Positions 2,305 through 14,577 of a stretch of 64,000 nt of DNA are shown one piece after another. The DNA is taken from assembly GCA_964558655.1 (NCBI GenBank), contig CAZLEX010000002.1, positions 1,600 through 65,599 on the forward strand, given 5' to 3'. The notes beneath the pieces are model-generated. The model searched no databases, had not been told where the DNA came from, and saw only the letters and a list, made by a program, of their open reading frames with translations. This DNA is from an uncultured Oscillospiraceae bacterium. Its GTDB lineage: Bacteria > Bacillota > Clostridia > Oscillospirales > SIG627. Made by a program: the position numbers and the translations under genes. Each line of letters begins with the position of its first letter. Within the stretch, counting starts at the first letter, position 1.

Positions 2305-2518
2305 TATACTTCTCCTTTCATTTCCTAATTATACCATAGGTTTAGTAGGAATACAATACTTTTTTAAAAAAATCGTAAAATTACTGTTCAAATCTCACCC
2401 ATCACTGATAATTGAACAAATTTACCTAAAGTACTTGAAAATCGAATAAGTTTATTTTATAATTGCAATACAACGATTTTTTATTTTCTTTTTATCGCAA
2501 AAACAGAGGAAACTTTTT

Positions 2519-3577
2519 ATGTATTATTCTACCGGTTACAATACTGAAATGACAAGAGGGAAAAAACGCATCGCATTAATACTGTCATTTTTTGTTACAA
2601 TAATTTCTCTTTCTGTTTTACTGTACATTGTTTTCGTTTATAAATCTCACACGGTTTACGAAATAGAAAAAATCGATGCAAAGCTCGAATATGAGGACGG
2701 TCTCTTGGTATCCGATGACTGTGCATATTTGTACAATGAGTACGGCGGAAGTTTATCGAAAAGTAATTTGTTTTCGTTGCCGATTTATCAATATGACGGA
2801 CCGGAGGCTGATTACTTATACTACAAATTCGATACAAAATATTATGCGGCTTCCCGTGAAAATCAATTGCTTTCTCCGGCGAATACCCAAACGACATTAA
2901 TGTTAAAATACGAGGGTATTGTTTACGAAGTTGATATTGAGAATAAAAGCTGTAAAAAACTTTTGTCGGACTGTGAAATTCATTCGGTTTCATTGGGCGG
3001 AACATATTACCTTGAAATATCCGACAACCGTTACGCTTTTTATAAGCTTAATAAAGATGAGCTTTGTTATTCCTCTGCCATGCAGTTACAATCGGATTTC
3101 CCCGTTGAATTTTGCTTTTGGTTAAATGACAGGTACTTGCTTGTAAAAACTTATACGGATACATCCGTACTTTACAATATCGTCGATGCGTCTAACGGAG
3201 AGGCTACGGTATGCGGGTCAATAAATAATAATGTTCCCGAAAATCAAAAAAAGCTCTTTTCGGATAAATATCTCATTTCGGATATTGACAGTGACAGAAT
3301 TGACATTTTTGATATATATACGCAGGAAACAGTTAAGTTTAAATTAAAAAATGCCGAAAAATATACGGTACTGCAAGTGTCAAATGATGCTTCATATGCC
3401 ATAGTGGAAAAAGACGGTGAAACATTTTTAATTTCAAAAAAAGGAAAGATACTGTCTTTTAAGGATATTACAGGCAATAACTGTAGCGATTCTTTTTTTA
3501 TCAAAGATAACATAATGGTAGCGGTTTTTGATGACGGTACATCGTGTTATTCTTCAATTTACAAAATAATTTTTTAA
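2519..3577 (+). CDS. hypothetical single-pass membrane protein with a large extracytoplasmic domain
   Basis: 352-aa ORF with one N-terminal TM segment (IALILSFFVTIISLSVLLYIVFV). I recognise no family signature. Confidence 0.55.
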   Translation: MYYSTGYNTEMTRGKKRIALILSFFVTIISLSVLLYIVFVYKSHTVYEIEKIDAKLEYEDGLLVSDDCAYLYNEYGGSLSKSNLFSLPIYQYDGPEADYLYYKFDTKYYAASRENQLLSPANTQTTLMLKYEGIVYEVDIENKSCKKLLSDCEIHSVSLGGTYYLEISDNRYAFYKLNKDELCYSSAMQLQSDFPVEFCFWLNDRYLLVKTYTDTSVLYNIVDASNGEATVCGSINNNVPENQKKLFSDKYLISDIDSDRIDIFDIYTQETVKFKLKNAEKYTVLQVSNDASYAIVEKDGETFLISKKGKILSFKDITGNNCSDSFFIKDNIMVAVFDDGTSCYSSIYKIIF

Positions 3578-3596
3578 TAAAGGCAGGGTTGGTAAG

Positions 3597-5950
3597 ATGA
3601 AAAAAATTTCTTTATGCGGAGAATGGAAACTTGCGGTAATGCCGCACGAAACAAGCGTTAATTGTTCGTGCTCGCAGGAACTTCATGATTTAAATGTCGA
3701 AATAATTCCCGCAACGGTTCCCGGAAATTTGGAGCTTGATTTGAACAAAGCCGGAAAAGTCGACGATTTGTTTTTCGGAACCAATCCGGACAAAATCAGA
3801 AGATATACGGAAAAACTGCATTGCTATTATTTTAAATCGTTTACCTTTGAGGAATTCGAAAACGATCCCGTTTTGTGTTTTGAAGGTCTTGACTGTTATG
3901 CCGATGTATACTTGAACGGTAAAAAGTAGCCTCATATGACAATATGCTCATTGAGCATAAATGCGAAATTTCATCTTTTTTGAAAAAAGGCGAAAACGAA
4001 ATATTCGTTCACATCAAACCCGCTGTAAAAGAAGCTTTAAAATACGATTATTCGTTTTTGATAAGTGCCGGTCCGTCAGCTTACGAACAGCTTTATGTAA
4101 GAAAACCGGCACATATGTACGGCTGGGATGTTATGCCGAGATACTTGTCGGCAGGTATTTGGAAGCCTGTTTATATCGAATTGCACGAAAAAAAAGAAGA
4201 GATTGACAAATTTTTCTTAAGTACAACTGTTCTCGGTGAAGATACTGCAACGCTGGAGCTTCAATATTCGGCAAAATGCGATATATTCGGCGATATAAAA
4301 TTTAAACTGTTCGGCAAGTGCGAAGACAGTATTATCGAAGCTGAAATTCCTCTCGTTTTTCCGAAGGGAAGAAAGAAAATCATTGTCAAAAACCCGAAAT
4401 TATGGTGGCCGAAAGGATTCGGAGCCCCTAATCTTTATGAATGTGTTTTGACATTGGTAAGGGACGGAAAGGTTATTGACGAGGTTAAATTTAATCACGG
4501 AATAAGAACCGTACGCCTTGACTGTACCGATATTATAGATGATGACGGCAACGGGGAATTTGTTTTTGTTGTCAATAACAGAAAAGTGTTTATTAAAGGT
4601 TCCAACTGGCTTCCAGCCGATCCGTTCCATTCGCGTGATAAAGAAAGAATTCCCTCCATGATAAAATTGGCAGAAGAAATAAACTGCAATATGCTAAGGT
4701 GCTGGGGCGGAAATGTATATGAAGACGACTTGTTTTACGAGCTTTGCGATAAAGCGGGAATTATGGTATGGCAGGATTTCTGCTTTGCGTGCGGTAAATA
4801 TCCGCAAGACGACGAATTTATAAAGCGTGTACGAATTGAGGCCATACAGGTCGTAAAAAGACTTCGTTCACACCCTTGTATTGCACTTTGGTCGGGGGAT
4901 AATGAATGTGATATTCGTTGGGTGCTCTCTGAAAGTATTAAAGTCGATCCGAATAAAAATGTTATTTCCCGAAAAGTTTTGCCCGATGTAGTCGAACAGT
5001 ATGATACTGCGTCTTCATATTTGCCGAGTTCCCCGTATATTAATCCGACAATTGCAAGTATGGTTTTAAAAGATAAACGCGGATTTGAAAGTGAAGCTTT
5101 ACTGTCTGCTCCCGAATGGCACGCTTATCTTTGGTACGGTTACTTTAAAAAAGGTTTTGCGACAGTATCGAAACTGAAATTTGTAAGTGAATTCGGTTCA
5201 ATGGGAACTCCGTCTCCGGAGAGTATAAAAAAATTCATTTCACCTGAAAAATTATGGCCTTACGATGAGAATAACGATGAATGGAAAATGCATTTAACAA
5301 CCGCCATTCCGGAGCTTTGCGAAAATGATTTCAGAATTAAAATTTTCTTTGAGCAGCTCATGACAATATTTAACAAAGAACCGGACAGTTTAAGTGATTT
5401 TTCGATAAAAAGCCAAATTACTCAAGGTGAACAGTTAAAATATTACATGGAACTGTTCAGAGCTCAAAAATGGAATAAGACCGGAATAGTTTGGTGGAAC
5501 TTAATCGACGGTTGGCCTCAATTTTCAGACGCTGTTGTTGATTATTATTTTGATAAGAAAAAGGCTTTTTACGACTTGAAGTCATGTCAGCAAGATGTTT
5601 GTCTTATTGTTACCGATTCCAAAGACGGAAAATTTCATGATTTAACGGTAGCCAATGATACTTTGAATAATATTAAAATTAATTATTCCGTAAAAGATGC
5701 TGACAGCGGGGAAATGCTCGCTTCGGGTTCTTCGCATGTTCTTGAAAATACAAGTACCGTTGTTTCAAAAATTCCGGTATCTTCGTCTACTCGTTTTCTG
5801 CTTATTGAATGGGACGGAGATGTCAACGGAAAGAACCACTACTTAGATATACAGGAGAACAAGGAAAAAATATCAAAAGAACAGTATATCGGCTGGCTGA
5901 AGAAATGCGGTTTGTGCACAGAGTGGGTTAATAAGATAAGTTTGTGGTAA
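3597..5950 (+). pseudogene. glycoside hydrolase family 2, beta-mannosidase-like, split by a frame change at 3921-3929
   Basis: ORF 3597-3929 ends ...YADVYLNGKK*. The -1 frame continues directly as VASYDNMLIEHKCEISSFLKKGENEIFV... through to 5950. Together they form one GH2 protein (FEGLDCYADVYLNGK, WGGNVYEDD, WSGDNEC). The break lies at GGT AAA AAG TAG. Confidence 0.8.
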
Positions 5951-5969
5951 TGTAAAACATAATATTGCC

Positions 5970-6004
5970 AATGAGTCCGGTTTATATCGGACTCATTTTC
6001 TTTT
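5970..6004 (+). terminator. rho-independent terminator after the GH2 gene
   Basis: Hairpin AATGAGTCCG-N8-CGGACTCATT followed by a T-rich tract. Confidence 0.65.
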
Positions 6005-6074
6005 GAAAATTTTCCGTTCGCCGAAAACGGTTTACATATTTTTAAATTTACCGAAGTAATATGAATATGTATTT

Positions 6075-6521
6075 ATGTATTTTGGGAGCGGTAAGTTGAA
6101 AAAAATATTTTTAATATACATTATTTTTCTGCTTTTATTTGTGATTTTAAAAATTGATTTTCACGGGGATTTCATAACACGCATACATTTATTTGAATCC
6201 GGAAATTATAAAAATTTCAACACGGTTGTTTTTAACACTTTCAAAATGTATAAAAACAATTTAAATTCATGTTGGAGCATTTTTAATATCGTCGGTAATA
6301 TTTTACCGTTTTTCTTTTTCGGACTTCTTTTAAAATCGGCTTGGAAAGAAAAAAATTTTTTCGAACTTTTCTTTTTTTCTTCCTGCTTATTTACTTTGTT
6401 TGAAATTATTCAATATATTTTCATGATAGGTGTATGCGATATAGACGATTTGATAACGAATGTTTTTTTCGCTTCATTCGGGATAATATTTTATAAATTT
6501 TTAAAAAAATCAAAGCTTTAA
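6075..6521 (+). CDS. VanZ-like membrane protein
   Basis: 148 aa with about 4 TM segments. The NILPFFFFG ... FEIIQ ... DIDDLITNVFFASFG pattern matches my memory of the VanZ family. Confidence 0.55.
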   Translation: MYFGSGKLKKIFLIYIIFLLLFVILKIDFHGDFITRIHLFESGNYKNFNTVVFNTFKMYKNNLNSCWSIFNIVGNILPFFFFGLLLKSAWKEKNFFELFFFSSCLFTLFEIIQYIFMIGVCDIDDLITNVFFASFGIIFYKFLKKSKL

Positions 6522-6598
6522 TATTATTTTGCAATTAACAAAAAACCTATTGATTTTAATTCGGTTTTGTAATAGAATTATATCGGAGGAGGGATACC

Positions 6599-7768
6599 TT
6601 GTTTCGTAAATTTACAGATTTGTTTATAAAAAGAAAAGATACACTTACAAAAAATCAATTAAGAGAAAAATACGGGAATTTTTCCGGATTGGTCGGTATT
6701 TTTTGTAATTTTATTTTGGCAACGGTTAAATTTTTTATAGGAGCTCTTACCGGAAGCATTTCGGTCAGTGCGGATGCGGTAAATAATCTTTCGGATTCTT
6801 TGACATCGGTTTTGTCGATAGCGGCATTTAAAATTGCATCAAAACCTGCCGACAAAAAGCACCCGTTCGGTCATGCGAGAATTGAGTATATAGTTTCCAT
6901 GATACTTTCGTTTTTCTTATTGACCGTAGGCGTTGACCTTTTAAAATCGTCTTTTGAGAAAATATCGTCGCCGGCTTCCGTTTCCTATTCGTTCCCGATT
7001 TTAATAATACTTTTATTGACCGTATTGTTGAAAATCTGGCTTTCTTTTTTTTACCGCTTTATTTCAAACGAAATAGATTCCGATATGTTAAAAGCAAATG
7101 CCGCCGACAGTCTTTCCGATGCACTGTCAACATTTGCCGTTCTGATTTCGGCGTTGATATCCGAATATACCGACTTTAATCTTGACGGATATGTCGGGGT
7201 TCTTGTTTCCGTATTTTTGCTTGTTAATGCGTTTAAAATACTTAACGACACAAAAAATCATATACTCGGCACGGAACCCGATGCTCAACTTATCAAACAG
7301 ATATACAATTTCGCCATAGCCAATGACGAGATTATCGCAATACATGATTTGTACATACATAATTACGGTCCCGGAAGATGTTTTGCCACATTTCATGCCG
7401 AAGTAGACGGGAAGAAGGATATTTTCGTTACACACGACGCTATTGATAATGTTGAAAAGGGCATATTGAATGAATTCGGTATACAGTGTACGATACATCT
7501 CGATCCGATTATCAATGATGACGAAGAAGTTTTAAATCTGAAAAATCAAACTTCCGCTATCGTCGAAGAAATAAATTCCGAATTTTCCATTCACGATTTT
7601 CGTTTTGTTCCCGGAGATACCCATTTTAATTTGATTTTCGATGTGCTTGTTCCGTTTAATTGCAAAATGAGTGACGAAGAAATAAAGAATTTGATTGAAA
7701 TAAAAATAAAAAAATTATCAAACAGTTATTTTACCGTTGTTACAGTAGACAGAGGAGAAAAGATATGA
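6599..7768 (+). CDS. cation diffusion facilitator (CDF) family metal efflux transporter
   Basis: TTG start after GGAGGAGGG. Contains SADAVNNLSDS and HPFGHARIEY motifs, six TM segments and a C-terminal cytoplasmic domain. Confidence 0.85.
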   Translation: MFRKFTDLFIKRKDTLTKNQLREKYGNFSGLVGIFCNFILATVKFFIGALTGSISVSADAVNNLSDSLTSVLSIAAFKIASKPADKKHPFGHARIEYIVSMILSFFLLTVGVDLLKSSFEKISSPASVSYSFPILIILLLTVLLKIWLSFFYRFISNEIDSDMLKANAADSLSDALSTFAVLISALISEYTDFNLDGYVGVLVSVFLLVNAFKILNDTKNHILGTEPDAQLIKQIYNFAIANDEIIAIHDLYIHNYGPGRCFATFHAEVDGKKDIFVTHDAIDNVEKGILNEFGIQCTIHLDPIINDDEEVLNLKNQTSAIVEEINSEFSIHDFRFVPGDTHFNLIFDVLVPFNCKMSDEEIKNLIEIKIKKLSNSYFTVVTVDRGEKI

Positions 7769-8706
7769 ATAAAAAATCAAAAAGCTCAGGTGGAAAAATT
7801 ATAACGCTTATTTTGTTGGTTATCGTTGTGGCTGCTGCCGCAGTAATCGTTTACAATTTTTTCGGCAAATCCGATGAAGATTTAAATAATCCGACGCCTG
7901 ACAGTAATCAACAAACCGACAACAGTCAAAACGGTGACGACTCCGCCGTTTCGGATAACATAAACAGTTCGGATAAAACCGATCCCGCAGTGACTGTTGA
8001 TGAACCGAATGTCCCGGATTTATCCGAAACCGCACCGAAACCGGTTTATACTCAGCAGGAATTGCTTAGTCTTTATCCCGGGGCGGTGTTGCCTCTTTCA
8101 CAGGACGCAGGTGACGATTATATAAACGATATATATTTTGTGGGAGACTCGACCACTCACGGAATGGCATATTACGGGGTGCTGAAAGACGGGAAAGAAA
8201 CAGATAAAGTTTGGACGCCAAGATCGGGTACTCTTGCCATATGGAATGTTCTTACGGAAAAAATCGTACTTCCGGAAGATGATAGCGAAATGACAATAAT
8301 TGAGGCAGTGTCGTTGAAAAAACCTAAAAAAATTGTTTTCACTCTCGGCGTCAACGGCGTATCCAGTCAATCCGAAGATGCTTTTGTGTCTTTTTATTCG
8401 GATTTAATTGACGGCGTTAAAAAAGCATCTCCCGATACGGTTATTATTTTGCAGTCGATTTATCCCGTTTGTTCTTACTATCAGTATGTGAATTCGATTT
8501 CTATGGAAAAAATCAACCTTGCAAATTCTTGGATAGCAAAACTTGCATATGACAAGAACTGTTATTATCTTAATACCTGTTCGGTTTTGGTCGATGAAAG
8601 CGGATATCTGAACCCCGATTATTGCAACGGTGACGGAATTCATATTTCACCCGAAGGGTTTGAGGTAATACTCGATTATATAAAAACACATTCGATACAG
8701 CAATGA
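7765..8706 (+). CDS. membrane-anchored SGNH/GDSL-family hydrolase
   Basis: N-terminal TM segment, a low-complexity Ser/Asp/Asn linker, the GDS block (FVGDSTTHG) and the C-terminal DGIH block (GDGIHISPEG). Its start overlaps the CDF gene's stop codon (ATGA). Confidence 0.75.
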   Translation: MNKKSKSSGGKIITLILLVIVVAAAAVIVYNFFGKSDEDLNNPTPDSNQQTDNSQNGDDSAVSDNINSSDKTDPAVTVDEPNVPDLSETAPKPVYTQQELLSLYPGAVLPLSQDAGDDYINDIYFVGDSTTHGMAYYGVLKDGKETDKVWTPRSGTLAIWNVLTEKIVLPEDDSEMTIIEAVSLKKPKKIVFTLGVNGVSSQSEDAFVSFYSDLIDGVKKASPDTVIILQSIYPVCSYYQYVNSISMEKINLANSWIAKLAYDKNCYYLNTCSVLVDESGYLNPDYCNGDGIHISPEGFEVILDYIKTHSIQQ

Positions 8707-8726
8707 ACGGTAAAATACTAAGGCAA

Positions 8727-8736
8727 TAAAATTCGG
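8727..8736 (+). repeat. left copy of the 10-bp direct repeat TAAAATTCGG flanking the hsdS array
   Basis: An identical 10-mer occurs at 12138-12147. This copy lies 10 nt upstream of the hsdS-1 ATG. Confidence 0.7.
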
Positions 8737-8746
8737 AGGAAAATAA

Positions 8747-10309
8747 ATGACCGGACAACAGCTAAAAAACTCAATATTGCAGATGGCTGTTCAAGGAAAA
8801 CTTGTTGTGCAAGACCCGAATGACGAACCGGCATCTGTGTTACTTAAAAGAATCAGAGAAGAAAAAGAAAAACTTATCAAAGAAGGCAAAATTAAAAAAG
8901 AAAAAAATCCTTCTTATATTTTCAAAGGTGCCGATAATTTGCCTTATGAGAAAGTCGGCGAGAATGAGCCGGTATGTATTGCAGATGAGGTGCCGTTTGA
9001 GATTCCGGATAGTTGGGAATGGGTGCGATTGGGAACAATTCTTCATAAATTAAGCGACGGAACTCATTCCAGACCGCAGTATGTCCCCTTTGGTGTCCCG
9101 TTTATTTCTGTTAAAGATGTAAGTAGTGGAAAATTAGATTTTTCTGATTGCAAATACATTACAGAAGAACACCGCGAACTGTATAGTAAATGCAATCCCG
9201 AGCAAGGAGACATATTGCTAACAAAGGTTGGAACCACGGGTATTCCGGTGATTGTGGATACTATTGATGAATTTAGCTTGTTTGTCAGTGTGGCTCTTCT
9301 GAAATTCAATCAAGAATTGTTGTGCAACGAATATTTGGTTTGCTTGATAAATTCACCATTAGTGCAGAAGCAAGCTGAGGAAAACACTCGCGGAGTAGGA
9401 AATAAGAACTGGGTAATGCGAGATATAGCAAACACTTTAATTGTTATTCCACCACTTTTAGAACAACAAAGAATTGTAAGTAAACTACTAGAGATTCTAC
9501 CGTTTGCTGATAACTATACCCACACCTACTCTAAAGCAGAAGAATTAAACAAAAACTTTCCGGAACTGCTCAAGAAGTCCATTTTGCAAGAAGCTGTTCA
9601 AGGCAAACTTGTTCCGCAAGATGAAAATGACGAACCGGCGAGTGTACTTTTGGAACGCATTAGAGCCGAAAAACAAAAGTTGATTGCAGAAGGGAAAATA
9701 AAAAAAGACAAGCACGAATCCGTCATTTTCAGAAGGGGTAATTCTTATTATGAGAAGTTAGACGGAATTGAGCGTTGTATCGACGATGAAATACCGTTTA
9801 AGATACCGGATAACTGGTGTTGGGAACGCTGGGGAAATATAACGCAAAGCATACAGTACGGTTATAATGCACCGGCAAAGAATGAAGGAAAAATCAAAAT
9901 GGTACGCATTAGCGATATACATAATAATACTGTTCAATGGAATACTGTTCCGTTTTGCGATATTGCAAATGAAGATATAGAAACATATCTTTTAAAACCC
10001 AATGATATATTGTTTGCCCGAACCGGAGGAACGGTTGGAAAGTCATATTTAGTGACTGAAATAGTTGAAGATGCTATATACGCCGGATATTTGATTAGGA
10101 CTCGTTATAGTGATGAACTTGTTGCAAGATATTTGAAATACTTTATGGAAAGTGAATTATATTGGTCGCAACTACATTCAGGAACTATTGCAACAGCTCA
10201 ACCGAATTGCAACGGTCAAACATTGTCCAAAATGTTATTACCAATACCGCCACGGCTTGAACAAGAGAGAATAACAAAAATGATTGATGTTCTTTTTGAA
10301 AAAATATAG
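8747..10309 (+). CDS. hsdS: type I restriction-modification specificity subunit HsdS (copy 1), CR-TRD-CR-TRD layout
   Basis: 520 aa. The conserved-region signature ILQ.AVQGKLV.QD.NDEPASVLL.RIR.EK.KLI.EGKIKK occurs at the N-terminus and mid-protein. Each of the two variable TRDs ends in P(P)L.EQ.RI. Confidence 0.9.
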   Translation: MTGQQLKNSILQMAVQGKLVVQDPNDEPASVLLKRIREEKEKLIKEGKIKKEKNPSYIFKGADNLPYEKVGENEPVCIADEVPFEIPDSWEWVRLGTILHKLSDGTHSRPQYVPFGVPFISVKDVSSGKLDFSDCKYITEEHRELYSKCNPEQGDILLTKVGTTGIPVIVDTIDEFSLFVSVALLKFNQELLCNEYLVCLINSPLVQKQAEENTRGVGNKNWVMRDIANTLIVIPPLLEQQRIVSKLLEILPFADNYTHTYSKAEELNKNFPELLKKSILQEAVQGKLVPQDENDEPASVLLERIRAEKQKLIAEGKIKKDKHESVIFRRGNSYYEKLDGIERCIDDEIPFKIPDNWCWERWGNITQSIQYGYNAPAKNEGKIKMVRISDIHNNTVQWNTVPFCDIANEDIETYLLKPNDILFARTGGTVGKSYLVTEIVEDAIYAGYLIRTRYSDELVARYLKYFMESELYWSQLHSGTIATAQPNCNGQTLSKMLLPIPPRLEQERITKMIDVLFEKI

Positions 10310-10317
10310 CAACACTT

Positions 10318-10373
10318 ATGCCGTTACCACCCCTTGCAGAACAACACCGCATTGTTGATAAAATCAAAGAAGT
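10318..10373 (+). pseudogene. relic 3' end of an hsdS gene (MPLPPLAEQHRIVDKIKE...)
   Basis: Reads the HsdS C-terminal motif PLPPLAEQHRIVDKIKE. It is nucleotide-identical to the 3' end of hsdS-2 over 48 bp, and no TRD lies upstream of it. Confidence 0.65.
10324..10371 (+). repeat. perfect 48-bp direct repeat, copy 1
   Basis: TTACCACCCCTTGCAGAACAACACCGCATTGTTGATAAAATCAAAGAA is identical to 12066-12113. I checked it base by base. Confidence 0.92.
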
Positions 10374-10569
10374 ATTCTGTGCAAGAACTTGCCGATAGAA
10401 ACTATAACATTGACCTTTGCCCTTATCCACACGAGGAAGAAGAAATTCTTCCATCTTATGAACTCATTTTGCAGTATCAGGAAAAGCGAGCAAGTTTAAA
10501 GCCGATATTGACCGAATACTCGAACAAATTACGGATATTTTAGGTATTGATTTTGAGGAAAATAAATGA
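10372..10569 (+). pseudogene. probable relic of the 3' end of an hsdM (type I methylase) gene, frameshifted
   Basis: Reads ...YSVQELADRNYNIDLCPYPHEEEEILPSYELILQYQEKRASL. After a 1-nt frame change near 10498 it continues ADIDRILEQITDILGIDFEENK*, with its stop overlapping the hsdS-2 ATG (ATGA). That is the usual hsdM-hsdS junction. The HsdM C-terminus assignment is from memory of the family. Confidence 0.45.
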
Positions 10570-12140
10570 CCGGACAACAGCTTAAAAATTCAATATTGCA
10601 GATGGCGGTTCAAGGTAAACTTGTGCCTCAGGATCCCAATGACGAGCCGGCATCGGTATTGCTTGAGAGAATACGAAAAGAAAAAGAGCAACTTATCAAA
10701 GAGGGAAAAATCAAAATAGATAAGCATGAATCTTTTATTTTCAAAAAGAATAATTCTTATTACGAAAAGCGTGGTTCAGAAATTGTTTGCATTGACGGCG
10801 AAATACCCTTTGATATTCCTGACAGCTGGCAATGGGTAAAGCTTAAGAATCTTGTTAGAAAGGAAATTAAGCGTGGTAAATCTCCAAAGTATGCAGATGG
10901 TGGAAATGTTTATGTTTTTGCGCAGAAATGTAATGTGAAACTTGGTGGAATTGATGTTTCGTTGGCCAAATTTTTGGATATGAAAGCATTTGAAAAATAC
11001 CCAATCGAAGAATATATGGTTAATGAAGATATAATCATTAATTCGACTGGAAATGGTACTCTTGGGCGAATTGGAATGTTTCGTGATACTGATAGAATAA
11101 ATGATTTTGTTATCGTTCCAGATTCTCATGTTACAATTATTCGAGCTTGCGACCAGTTGAAAAAAGATTATTTATTCTATGTTCTGAAATACTATCAACC
11201 TTATCTCGAAAAAGCAGGGGAAGGTTCGACCAACCAGACTGAATTACATCCTTCAACCATAGCAGAGTTATTTGTTCCTCTTCCGCCTGCTTGCGAGCAG
11301 GAAAGAATAATCGCAAAACTCTTGAAAGTTTTACATTATGTTGATGTGTACGGCGAAAAGGAAAAAGCACTGCAATCTTATAATGCAGACTTTCCGAAAC
11401 AACTCAAGAAATCCATTTTACAAGAAGCCGTTCGGGGTAACCTTGTTTCGCAAGATGAAAATGATGAGCCGGCAAGTGTACTTTTAGAACGAATTCGTGC
11501 TGAAAAACAAAAGTTGATTGCCGAAGGTAAAATCAAAAAGATAAACGAATCCGTCATTTTCAGAAGGGATAATTCTTATTATGAGAAGTTGGACGGAACT
11601 GAGTGTTGTATCGACGATGAGATACCGTTTGACATTCCGGAAAGTTGGTGTTGGTGCAGATTAAATACACTCGGCATTACGCAGACTGGGAATACTCCAT
11701 CGAAAACGCATCCTGAATATATTGGAAAAGATATTTCTTTTATTACACCGGGAGATATTCAAAATGGTAGCATTTGTTATAATAATCAAGCTTTATCATT
11801 TTTAGGAAAAGATGTCGCTCGTGTTTGCTCACCAAATTCTGTTCTTCAAGTTTGTATAGGCGGCTCTATAGGTAAAGCTGCTATAACAACTGCAGAAGTT
11901 ACATTTAACCAACAAATAAATGCAATTTCACCTCTCGTAGTAAATACTGAATTTGTTTATGTTGTTATGCAGTCCGTTTATTTTTTGAAAAATATAAAAG
12001 AACAAGCCGGAGGAACTGCAACTCCAATTATTAATCGAGGTGTATGGGATTTGTTATTAATTCCTTTACCACCCCTTGCAGAACAACACCGCATTGTTGA
12101 TAAAATCAAAGAATTACTTTCTTTGTGTAATAATCCGTAA
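10566..12140 (+). CDS. hsdS: type I restriction-modification specificity subunit HsdS (copy 2), CR-TRD-CR-TRD layout
   Basis: 524 aa with the same conserved regions as copy 1. Both of its TRDs differ from both TRDs of copy 1. Confidence 0.9.
   Translation: MTGQQLKNSILQMAVQGKLVPQDPNDEPASVLLERIRKEKEQLIKEGKIKIDKHESFIFKKNNSYYEKRGSEIVCIDGEIPFDIPDSWQWVKLKNLVRKEIKRGKSPKYADGGNVYVFAQKCNVKLGGIDVSLAKFLDMKAFEKYPIEEYMVNEDIIINSTGNGTLGRIGMFRDTDRINDFVIVPDSHVTIIRACDQLKKDYLFYVLKYYQPYLEKAGEGSTNQTELHPSTIAELFVPLPPACEQERIIAKLLKVLHYVDVYGEKEKALQSYNADFPKQLKKSILQEAVRGNLVSQDENDEPASVLLERIRAEKQKLIAEGKIKKINESVIFRRDNSYYEKLDGTECCIDDEIPFDIPESWCWCRLNTLGITQTGNTPSKTHPEYIGKDISFITPGDIQNGSICYNNQALSFLGKDVARVCSPNSVLQVCIGGSIGKAAITTAEVTFNQQINAISPLVVNTEFVYVVMQSVYFLKNIKEQAGGTATPIINRGVWDLLLIPLPPLAEQHRIVDKIKELLSLCNNP
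12066..12113 (+). repeat. perfect 48-bp direct repeat, copy 2 (inside the hsdS-2 3' end)
   Basis: Identical to 10324-10371. The offset between the copies is 1742 bp. Confidence 0.92.
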
Positions 12141-12147
12141 AATTCGG
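12138..12147 (+). repeat. right copy of the 10-bp direct repeat TAAAATTCGG flanking the hsdS array
   Basis: Identical to 8727-8736. It overlaps the hsdS-2 stop codon. Confidence 0.7.
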
Positions 12148-12174
12148 CATACACCTCTTTTTGAAGTGTATGCC
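12146..12174 (+). terminator. stem-loop after hsdS-2 (possible terminator, weak T tract)
   Basis: GGCATACAC-N11-GTGTATGCC. The downstream sequence is not a clean T run. Confidence 0.45.
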
Positions 12175-12277
12175 TAACTGTTTGCAGGGGATTTTTGTTT
12201 TATGTTTGTGAAGTGTAAAGAAAGTTTCGCTACGGTAATGTGTCAATACAGATTACATAAACCGGTAGAAAAATAAA

Positions 12278-12337
12278 GATGCTTTTTCAACAATTATGCG
12301 TCGCTTAACTTTGCGGAAGCTTTATATTGCAATTTTT
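12278..12337 (+). repeat. about 55-60-nt intergenic repeat, copy A
   Basis: GATGCTTTTTCAACAATTATGCGTCGCTTAACTTTGCGGAAGCTTTATATTGCAATTT closely matches 19661-19718, with a few substitutions or indels by eye. Confidence 0.75.
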
Positions 12338-12364
12338 TCATAGCAAAAATTCATAATATTTTTC

Positions 12365-12393
12365 TTGACTAAGCTCAAGAAAGGTTATATAAT
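12365..12393 (+). promoter_or_regulatory. sigma-A-type promoter for the 12424 gene
   Basis: TTGACT-17 nt-TATAAT. Confidence 0.55.
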
Positions 12394-12423: not shown

Positions 12424-13014
12424 GTGGAAGATATAACAGTACCCGAAAAATATAAAAACGATTTTCAGAGAGCTCTTGACAAAGCTGTTGAACTTGGCAG
12501 TTTTTCGGATTCAACGCTTGCAAAAGAGTTAGATATAAGTAAACTTAATGCGGCGATACTTATAGGGTTTATGGATAAATACGGATTCCTTTTTCCGTCT
12601 GCCAAAAACGAGGTTAAGGCTGTAAGAATATCGCAGGAAGAATGGGATAACATCGATCGCGATATACGAAGGTATTCTCCCGAGCCCGCCGAAGAAAAAG
12701 AACCGGAATTTACACTCTCTCCGATAGAACCGGTTAAGGCACTTTATTCCAAGACGGTTGAGATTACTTCCGGAGGTGTGATGATATCGGATAAATCGGC
12801 TACTGTCTTTATTCCTGCCGACGGTGTGCTTGTACCTCATTTTAAAAAAGCGGGTTTTCTTTCCAAAGGATTTATATATTTCGGAGACAGCCGTCCTAAA
12901 AATGCGAGAATTGCAAGAAAGAGTACTTCATCGGTTATATTTCGGCGTTCTCTTAACGAAAAAATGGAATACCTTGTTACAAGCCTGATATCAGACATTG
13001 AAGAACGGTTGTAA
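12424..13014 (+). CDS. hypothetical protein with an FtsK-gamma-like winged-helix N-terminus
   Basis: GTG start 5 nt after GGAGG. Residues about 15-65 (ALDKAVELGSFSDSTLAKELDISKLNAAILIGFMDKYGFLFP) resemble the FtsK gamma/KOPS-binding wHTH pattern. The C-terminal half is unassigned. Confidence 0.55.
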   Translation: MEDITVPEKYKNDFQRALDKAVELGSFSDSTLAKELDISKLNAAILIGFMDKYGFLFPSAKNEVKAVRISQEEWDNIDRDIRRYSPEPAEEKEPEFTLSPIEPVKALYSKTVEITSGGVMISDKSATVFIPADGVLVPHFKKAGFLSKGFIYFGDSRPKNARIARKSTSSVIFRRSLNEKMEYLVTSLISDIEERL

Positions 13015-13174: not shown

Positions 13175-13227
13175 TTTTTATCATTTACGAAAGTATTTAA
13201 TATGCTGTATTGAAAGGATTGATTATT

Positions 13228-14577
13228 GTGAATGCATATGTTGAAAGCGTAATTGAAAAGGTTCGTACAAAATACGCAAGTGAGCCTGAGTTCGTGCAGA
13301 CGGTTGAAGAAGTTTTGTCTTCATTGTCTCCGGTTGTCGATGCTCACCCCGAGTATGTTAAAGCAGACCTTCTCAACAGAATGACAGAACCCGAAAGAAT
13401 GTTTTCTTTCCGTGTTGTTTGGACAGACGATAACGGAGAAGTTCATACAAATACGGGCTACCGCTGCCAGTTTAACGGAGCTATCGGTCCTTACAAGGGC
13501 GGTCTTAGATTTCAAAAAAATGTTTATCCCGGAATCATTAAGTTTCTCGGATTTGAACAGACCTTTAAAAATTCTTTAACCGGGTTGCCTATCGGCGGAG
13601 GTAAAGGCGGTTCCGATTTTGATCCGGCAGGAAAATCCGATGCCGAGATTATGCGTTTTTGTCAAAGCTTTATGACGGCACTTTACCGTTATATCGGTCC
13701 CGATGTTGATGTTCCCGCAGGTGATATCGGTGTCGGCGGAAGAGAGATAGGCTATCTTTACGGTCAGTACCGCCGTTTGAAAGGCGTATGGGAGAACGGG
13801 GTTCTTACCGGAAAGGGCACTACATACGGAGGTTCTCTTATTCGTCCCGAAGCAACCGGATACGGTGCAATTTATTATCTTAATGAAGTCCTTTCTCATG
13901 AAGGAGAAAGCATCAAGGGAAAGACCATAGCTGTTTCCGGCTTCGGTAATGTTGCATGGGGAATTTGCAAAAAAGCTATGCATCTCGGTGCAAAGGTTGT
14001 AACTCTTTCGGGACCTGACGGATATATTTATGATCCGGACGGTGTTTCGACAGAAGAAAAAGTTGCTTATTTGCTTGAAATGCGTTCTTCCGGCAGAAAT
14101 CGTGTTCAGGATTATGCCGATAAATTCGGAGTTAAGTTCTTTCCGGGACAGAAGCCTTGGGGAGAAAAAGTCGATATCATCATGCCGGCTGCAACACAGA
14201 ACGATGTCGGGGTGGATTCGGCTGAAAAGATTATCGCTAATGGCATAAAGTATTACATTGAAGTTGCCAATATGCCTACAACAAACGAAGCCCTCGAACT
14301 TTTGAGAAATGCCGACGGAGTTATTGTGGCTCCTTCCAAAGCGGTTAATGCGGGCGGTGTCGGTGTATCCGCACTTGAAATGTCTCAGAACTCCGAGAGA
14401 CTTGTATGGACGGAAGAAGAAGTTGATAAACATTTGCACGAAATGATGAAAAATATTCATAAGGTTTCAGCAGAAGCTGCCGAAGAATACGGTCTCGGTT
14501 ACGACCTTGTTGCCGGTGCAAACATTGCCGGATTTAAGAAGGTTGCGACTGCCATGCTCGAACAGGGTATATTCTGA
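13228..14577 (+). CDS. gdhA: glutamate dehydrogenase (hexameric Glu/Leu/Phe/Val DH family)
   Basis: Contains GGGKGGSDFDP (catalytic Lys box) and a GFGNVAWG dinucleotide fold. The start is probably GTG 13228 (AAAGGA 9 nt upstream) rather than the track's TTG 13210. Confidence 0.92.
   Translation: MNAYVESVIEKVRTKYASEPEFVQTVEEVLSSLSPVVDAHPEYVKADLLNRMTEPERMFSFRVVWTDDNGEVHTNTGYRCQFNGAIGPYKGGLRFQKNVYPGIIKFLGFEQTFKNSLTGLPIGGGKGGSDFDPAGKSDAEIMRFCQSFMTALYRYIGPDVDVPAGDIGVGGREIGYLYGQYRRLKGVWENGVLTGKGTTYGGSLIRPEATGYGAIYYLNEVLSHEGESIKGKTIAVSGFGNVAWGICKKAMHLGAKVVTLSGPDGYIYDPDGVSTEEKVAYLLEMRSSGRNRVQDYADKFGVKFFPGQKPWGEKVDIIMPAATQNDVGVDSAEKIIANGIKYYIEVANMPTTNEALELLRNADGVIVAPSKAVNAGGVGVSALEMSQNSERLVWTEEEVDKHLHEMMKNIHKVSAEAAEEYGLGYDLVAGANIAGFKKVATAMLEQGIF

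Follow-up and report, generated by a model that had tools for sequence, protein, structure and literature searches.

The HsdS specificity subunit of type I restriction-modification systems has no catalytic activity alone, and acts only when assembled with two HsdM subunits (and with HsdR). Here we describe two hsdS genes, hsdS-A and hsdS-B, found in a 64,000-nt stretch of contig CAZLEX010000002.1 from an uncultured Oscillospiraceae bacterium (assembly GCA_964558655.1, positions 1,600 to 65,599), the whole of which is referred to below as the window. Orphan hsdS genes are well documented, including cases with multiple copies, some acting in trans and others silent (PMC12418389, PMC6918075, PMC6241649), and the surprise that an initial annotation of this DNA expressed at finding an orphan pair was thus too high. 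The architecture known as the epigenetic inverton, or phase-variable type I locus, has also already been described (Huang et al. 2020, PMC7672463; Atack et al. 2020, PMC7394358). The pair in the window is a fresh instance of a known phenomenon, namely orphan hsdS genes left behind by a decayed inverton-type type I module, and we consider it very probable that the island carrying them (approximately positions 8731-12343) represents what rearrangement has left of a type IB (EcoAI/EcoEI-like) restriction-modification module that spreads by horizontal transfer.

Three described orphans offered points of comparison. In Lactococcus, orphan hsdS genes act in trans and are mostly plasmid-borne, sometimes with several per replicon (PMC12418389). 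The window resembles these in holding intact S genes with neither an M nor an R gene beside them, and in that a locus may have more than one; each would add a specificity to a distant enzyme, and many of the lactococcal orphans are silent. In contrast to the lactococcal orphans, however, the genes in the window belong to a chromosome, where they are surrounded by housekeeping genes, are of type IB and carry the scars of deletion and duplication, and their activity and partner are only predicted. The orphan 12228-S of Staphylococcus epidermidis follows a truncated hsdR, lacks an hsdM and requires the cognate hsdM allele for activity (PMC6918075). It shares with the window the position of an orphan hsdS beside the remnant of a partner gene, but is a single gene of a different type I family in the context of a staphylococcal cassette chromosome (SCC) element. 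The orphan hsdS of Moraxella catarrhalis locus 6 has target recognition domains (TRDs) in common with a complete locus (PMC6241649), and is similar to the window genes in being an orphan with direct repeats flanking the TRDs; TRD movement has been inferred in M. catarrhalis, where, unlike in the window, the partner locus is known.

Both genes in the window are intact and lie head-to-tail on the forward strand, hsdS-A at 8747-10309 (520 aa) and hsdS-B at 10566-12140 (524 aa), as the initial annotation had stated. Each encodes an N-terminal conserved region (CR), TRD1, a central CR, TRD2 and a short tail. Two stretches of each protein matched Pfam Methylase_S (PF01420), and conserved columns revealed in both the helical CRs of the type that pairs the two TRDs and binds HsdM. 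The PADLOC model Specificity_I PDLC03076 was matched by both proteins, with hsdS-A aligning over its full length (residues 1-518 on model positions 1-481 of 488, 378 bits). Weak matches to MADS mad5 models were sub-threshold and were dismissed, such cross-matches being expected of any HsdS. The four TRDs all differ, as had been claimed, with pairwise identities of 20-28%, against 65-84% among the four CRs. The CR-TRD-CR-TRD layout remarked upon earlier is present in both genes, but is not notable, as it is the norm of the EcoAI/EcoEI-like (type IB) family; a circularly permuted HsdS, which the N-terminal CR had suggested, was ruled out on the same ground.

The integrity of the CRs was assessed over 77 columns with conservation of 90% or more among 43 HsdS proteins encoded within operons. 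hsdS-A and hsdS-B showed one mismatch each, while the 43 operon-embedded proteins themselves averaged 1.1-1.4 mismatches per region. By this measure the CRs of the pair are no more divergent than those of homologues within operons, and there is no decay there. Between hsdS-A and hsdS-B the differences in the CRs are mostly synonymous, with a ratio of non-synonymous to synonymous divergence (dN/dS) of 0.07-0.14 and a dS of about 1, and since the CRs are saturated at synonymous sites the two genes are old alleles rather than recent duplicates. With an N-terminal CR, a ribosome-binding site (RBS) and a start codon, both are 'expression-site' copies.

The family of hsdS-B has more than 8000 database relatives, in gut and rumen Clostridia, Bacteroidales and other groups. 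Eighty homologous loci from a scan of species-representative genomes were annotated by local tblastn (retrieved loci carry the prefix L below). Among the 73 loci with enough upstream DNA, hsdM abuts hsdS in 62 and hsdM/hsdR lie nearby in nine more, leaving only two (L015 and L028) that look orphan. Downstream, a tyrosine recombinase was found in 37 and an inverted second hsdS in 36 of the 45 loci with enough DNA on that side; across taxa, most of these recombinases share 73-96% identity with the one from L101, three lying at 52-55%. By Pfam analysis, L002, L101 and L102 encode an EcoEI_R_C-bearing HsdR, HsdM and HsdS, together with a Phage_integrase protein, and have an inverted hsdS' devoid of the N-terminal CR; silent hsdS copies in the family lack this CR, P0006 in L101 being an example. 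The usual form of the module is hsdR-hsdM-hsdS-hairpin-tyrosine recombinase-inverted hsdS', which is the known 'epigenetic inverton'. Every one of the four TRDs of the window has a relative of 72-89% amino acid identity inside complete loci of different taxa: for hsdS-A, a TRD in L010 shares 86% identity with TRD1 and one in L020 shares 89% with TRD2, while TRD1 of hsdS-B is 87% identical to a TRD in L101, there within the silent inverted copy, and its TRD2 72% to one in L022. The window thus has in common with type IB invertons the HsdS family and layout, and its hsdM stub and hairpin (see below) as well as its TRDs have close relatives there. In contrast, the window is without an intact hsdM, hsdR or recombinase, an inverted hsdS or an inverted repeat, and its two hsdS copies are direct and both of the 'expression-site' type.

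PADLOC analysis of the 46 other open reading frames (ORFs) of at least 150 aa, with the hsdS genes left out, returned no hsdM or hsdR, and tblastn of type IB HsdM and HsdR against the whole 64-kb window found nothing except the hsdM stub. The tyrosine recombinase of the family was absent from the window by tblastn (best E-value 0.98), and no recombinase domain was found in window ORFs of at least 150 aa. No inverted exact repeats of at least 15 nt were detected between the island and the whole 64-kb window, and the CR repeats between hsdS-A and hsdS-B are all direct. Thus none of the hallmarks of an epigenetic inverton is present at the locus, neither an inverted hsdS with inverted repeats (set by Atack et al. 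at 20 bp or more, 100% identity and within 30 kb), nor an adjacent recombinase, nor complete hsdM/hsdR; what is present are intact hsdS genes without an adjacent intact hsdM or hsdR, as defines an orphan. The earlier statement that hsdM, hsdR and a recombinase are missing from the 64 kb therefore holds by PADLOC and tblastn for intact genes, but not for remnants, as an hsdM stub (10355-10569) and an hsdM tail (8731-8746) are both present.

These scars, together with a duplicated hsdS tail, were overlooked in the initial annotation, the description of the pair itself being otherwise sound. The hsdM tail at 8731-8746 (forward strand) comprises the last ~16 nt of the gene with a GGAGG RBS and stands directly before hsdS-A, 24 nt past the stop codon of the upstream SGNH hydrolase gene; the direct repeat D2 starts at 8731, and the tail aligns with the family hsdM/hsdS junction (alignment A4). 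An exact repeat of 28 nt (GAGGAAAATAAATGACCGGACAACAGCT) forms the 5' junction of both hsdS-A (8736-8763) and hsdS-B (10555-10582). It carries derived changes (GGAGGAAAATAAATG), while the family consensus and the orthologous junction of a close relative read GGAGGAAGAATAATG, without them. A derived junction shared in this manner suggests gene conversion, or concerted evolution, between the two copies.

The spacer of 256 nt between hsdS-A and hsdS-B holds two further remnants on the forward strand. A 57-nt hsdS 3'-end (10318-10374, repeat D4), encoding 'MPLPPLAEQHRIVDKIKEV', is 95% identical to the tail of hsdS-B itself (12060-12116), with 48 nt exact, as against 73-87% at most to the hsdS tails of other loci. 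It is joined, at a chance microhomology (TTGATAAA..CAAAGAA), to the hsdM 3' stub at 10355-10569, which spans ~210 nt (~65 codons), begins near HsdM residue 424 and overlaps the start codon of hsdS-B with its end. The stub has suffered a 1-nt deletion at about 10500 (alignment A4), so that beside 3.1 kb of uninterrupted hsdS reading frame the 0.2 kb of hsdM is already frameshifted. By tblastn it is 70% identical to residues 426-471 of a Clostridium beijerinckii HsdM (H1), which sits in an hsdR-hsdM-hsdS operon of the EcoAI/FtnUII family. Overall its amino acid identity to the HsdM C-terminus from an operon of this family is 67-70%, the window having no hsdR to compare. Plasmid matches to the stub are all annotated as DNA methyltransferases, and by blastn it matches the terminal ~210 nt of hsdM from dozens of homologous loci at 75-79% identity. 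Just past hsdS-B, a stable hairpin without a T-run (12143-12177, forward strand, inverted repeat I15; folding energy -19.3 kcal/mol, z = -3.45) is the module's own post-hsdS hairpin, sharing 90% identity with the one that separates hsdS from the recombinase gene in L020, L022 and L026. The right-hand tail of the island (12178-12343, no strand assigned) matched none of the fetched loci.

It is the presence of the hsdM stubs and the duplicated hsdS tail that identifies the island as a very probable remnant of an hsdR-hsdM-hsdS-recombinase-hsdS' module. At least three events are recorded in the sequence, and the most economical history would have three steps. A microhomology-mediated tandem duplication would have run from hsdM codon ~424 to the hsdS tail, which would account for the fusion of tail and stub as well as the direct repeat of 48 nt. 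A different allele, hsdS-A, would then have overwritten the body of copy 1, bringing its own tail and stop codon and leaving the old hsdS tail 8 nt downstream of it. Lastly, deletion would have removed hsdR and all but the final ~16 nt of hsdM, with loss also of the recombinase and hsdS'.

Could the junctions have been created by the assembly, the contig having jumped via the repeated CRs of hsdS and falsely joined housekeeping DNA to part of a complete hsd locus? A relative of ~95% nucleotide identity was available from seven independent Logan assemblies (L083-L089, runs SRR254005xx), and each displayed the same order as the window, from the SGNH stop codon to the hsdM tail and the hsdS start. 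Because these assemblies repeat the same order, the hsdM-less left junction is real and shared by descent with this relative. The CRs are indeed repeats, and all seven contigs break at the same base, 17 nt into hsdS, with a final 30-mer identical to the hsdM/hsdS junction of the family consensus; the assembly graph branches at this junction in every one of these samples. In contrast, the left junction that all seven reproduce consists of a unique spacer and a 16-nt hsdM tail, and neither the fusion of hsdS tail to hsdM stub nor the frameshift in the stub can come from the collapse of repeats, which leaves an artefact highly improbable. The contig breaks were also considered as a sign of extra hsdS copies in the relative, an idea that was dropped as the consensus 30-mer could come from other organisms in the samples.

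On the right side, homology to the close relative (L094 and L096) restarts only at window position 12344, from where it proceeds at 97% identity; the 37 nt upstream of this breakpoint in the relative are unrelated to the window and match nothing. On this basis the content of the island varies between strains. Gene order over this part of the window was compared with L098-L100 and L090/L091. Relatives of 61% identity have Rrf2-iscS-nifU directly beside the 196-aa gene and gdhA that follow the pair in the window, where a block of ~10 kb (~2305-12343) is interposed, made up of a 352-aa unknown protein, a split GH2 glycosidase, VanZ, czcD, the SGNH hydrolase and the two hsdS genes. In relatives of 66-71% identity, VanZ-czcD-SGNH occurs in another neighbourhood, next to ispH-S1 and tsaE. 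As gene order differs in these distant relatives, the hsdS pair marks a lineage-specific rearrangement point. A metagenome scan with the SGNH protein found nothing, and exact matches to the hsdS-A and hsdS-B proteins were present on no further contig.

As for function, reversible phase variation at the locus is excluded, as both the inverted repeats and the recombinase are absent. Recombination between the direct repeats of 20-48 nt could only delete or fuse hsdS genes. The expectation of up to four half-site combinations, raised in the initial annotation, falls away; two fixed genes amount to two specificities, and the other two would need recombination, which here means only deletion between direct repeats. 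Our tentative preference, held somewhat short of an even chance, is that at least one of the genes may act in trans for a compatible type IB HsdM/HsdR whose genes lie elsewhere in the genome, with one fixed bipartite N6-methyladenine (m6A) specificity added per gene. This is favoured by the ORFs having stayed intact over 3.1 kb beside a frameshifted stub, by CRs that do not deviate, and by the precedents in Lactococcus (PMC12418389) and S. epidermidis (PMC6918075). The 40-nt spacer between the SGNH gene and hsdS-A has no predicted terminator or structure, and the pair is therefore probably read through from the czcD-SGNH operon. Several points, however, weigh against service in trans. Transcription of the pair rests only on the absence of predicted signals; the search for partners covers the 64-kb window out of a 132.6-kb contig, and a compatible hsdM/hsdR elsewhere is a prediction; and the contrast between the frameshifted stub and the intact genes rests on a single event. 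The intact ORFs could merely reflect recent arrival, with which the right end of the island, differing as it does from the nearest relative, and the standing of both proteins as singletons among 15 billion sequences would be compatible. In addition, 43% of intact orphan S genes in lactococci are silent (PMC12418389).

The pair could alternatively be an inert relic, stranded by deletions with no usable partner, and still intact because of the short time elapsed or a recent refresh by recombination, which we regard as a serious possibility, nearly as likely as service in trans. Of the partner genes nothing more than stubs is left, the pair is located at a lineage-specific rearrangement point, and the content of the island on its right side is unlike that of the nearest relative; intact silent orphans are common (PMC12418389), and 12228-S of S. 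epidermidis is inactive without its cognate hsdM (PMC6918075). In contrast, the hsdM-less left junction predates the ~5% divergence of the flanks, and yet 3.1 kb of ORF have remained without a stop or frameshift; the CRs are as good as those in operon copies, and both deletions ended just short of an RBS and start codon. The pair might instead be a store of donor cassettes, with RecA-dependent gene conversion carrying copies of the TRDs to an active type IB locus at another site, in the manner of pilS/pilE. Conversion would run through the shared CRs and the hsdM-tail junction, and the derived 28-nt 5' junction is common to hsdS-A and hsdS-B; copy 1 was evidently overwritten by another allele, and movement of TRDs between an orphan and a complete locus has been inferred in M. 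catarrhalis (PMC6241649). This reading is nevertheless improbable, as the recipient locus is hypothetical, the exact identities between the two genes are short (20-48 nt) with CRs saturated at synonymous sites, and full promoter-proximal genes of the expression type with an RBS are unlike the usual silent cassettes, the silent copies of this family being without the N-terminal CR.

A selected form of such a store, a recombinase-free reservoir expressed from a housekeeping operon and swapping TRDs with a distant active type IB locus, is likewise improbable; the derived 28-nt junction shared by both genes, the overwritten copy 1 and the undecayed CRs offer hints of it. If true, a gut Oscillospiraceae-like bacterium would possess, for methylation specificity, a counterpart of the inverton that works in the manner of pilS/pilE. 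The proposal in the initial annotation that the HsdS proteins work with a non-canonical, non-HsdM partner, here taken as one encoded nearby, found no support and is the least credible of these explanations. Nothing beyond the absence of hsdM speaks for it, and the neighbours encode a cation-efflux protein (czcD), the SGNH hydrolase, the 196-aa protein and enzymes of core metabolism. The 196-aa protein is found with gdhA also at loci without hsdS, rRNA enzymes (MraW and RsmD-like) are the sole methyltransferases of the window, and the CRs keep the residues typical of HsdM-bound family members.

The locus illustrates the chromosomal decay of a widespread mobile type IB inverton, in which specificity genes can outlast the enzyme genes. 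Its value lies mainly in annotation and in this small evolutionary point, and it raises no new mechanistic question. Should the preferred reading hold and the orphans be active in trans, the assignment of methylome motifs to genes in this organism must include both, and attempts to bypass its restriction barrier must reckon with them, as in lactococci and staphylococci.

Several variations on the module were seen among the homologous loci. Its hosts include Lachnospiraceae, Oscillospiraceae, Erysipelotrichaceae, Bacteroidales, Treponema and metagenome-assembled genomes (MAGs) of Victivallales, and L014, L024, L065, L029, L041 and L060 exemplify its wide conservation among L003-L082. L065 comes from a MAG labelled as the archaeon Methanimicrococcus, for which horizontal transfer or contamination of the bin is possible. 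The HsdM/HsdR pairs of L067 and L002 (one pair compared) are ~89-90% identical. In L067 (10001-14473), two hsdS genes stand in direct tandem between hsdR-hsdM and the recombinase; direct hsdS tandems therefore occur inside complete loci. Amedibacillus dolichus has two hsdS-recombinase-hsdS' blocks, of which L027 is flanked on both sides by hsdM/hsdR, while the second (L028) has no hsdM within the DNA available. In L101 a group II intron reverse transcriptase (5110-6525) lies between the recombinase and the silent hsdS', and in L002 the gene for a GmrSD-type (type IV) nuclease (5957-8506) separates hsdR from hsdM; a similarly large hsdR-hsdM gap is present in L003, L039, L046 and L080.

The flanking ORFs agree with the earlier placement of the pair between an SGNH hydrolase gene and the gdhA neighbourhood. 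Upstream of hsdS-A, the SGNH/GDSL hydrolase gene (7765-8706) overlaps czcD, and downstream of the pair a 196-aa ORF (12424-13014) is followed by gdhA (13210-14577). The 196-aa gene, for whose product no Pfam or NCBIfam match was found, has its own strong promoter-like site (12365-12393) and lies directly upstream of gdhA in every locus inspected, its protein being 52-97% identical across loci (L093, L097 and L098). The remainder of the window is core housekeeping DNA, including Rrf2-iscS-nifU, the his operon, the dcw cluster, hrcA-grpE-dnaK-dnaJ, addA and feoB; window ORFs of at least 150 aa with a Pfam match are all housekeeping, and four have no Pfam match. The GH2 glycosidase mentioned above is seemingly split into a 110-aa N-terminal fragment (3597-3929) and, after 15 nt, a 668-aa ORF (3944-5950) whose Pfam match begins midway in the GH2 N-terminal domain; it could be a pseudogene or reflect a sequencing error.

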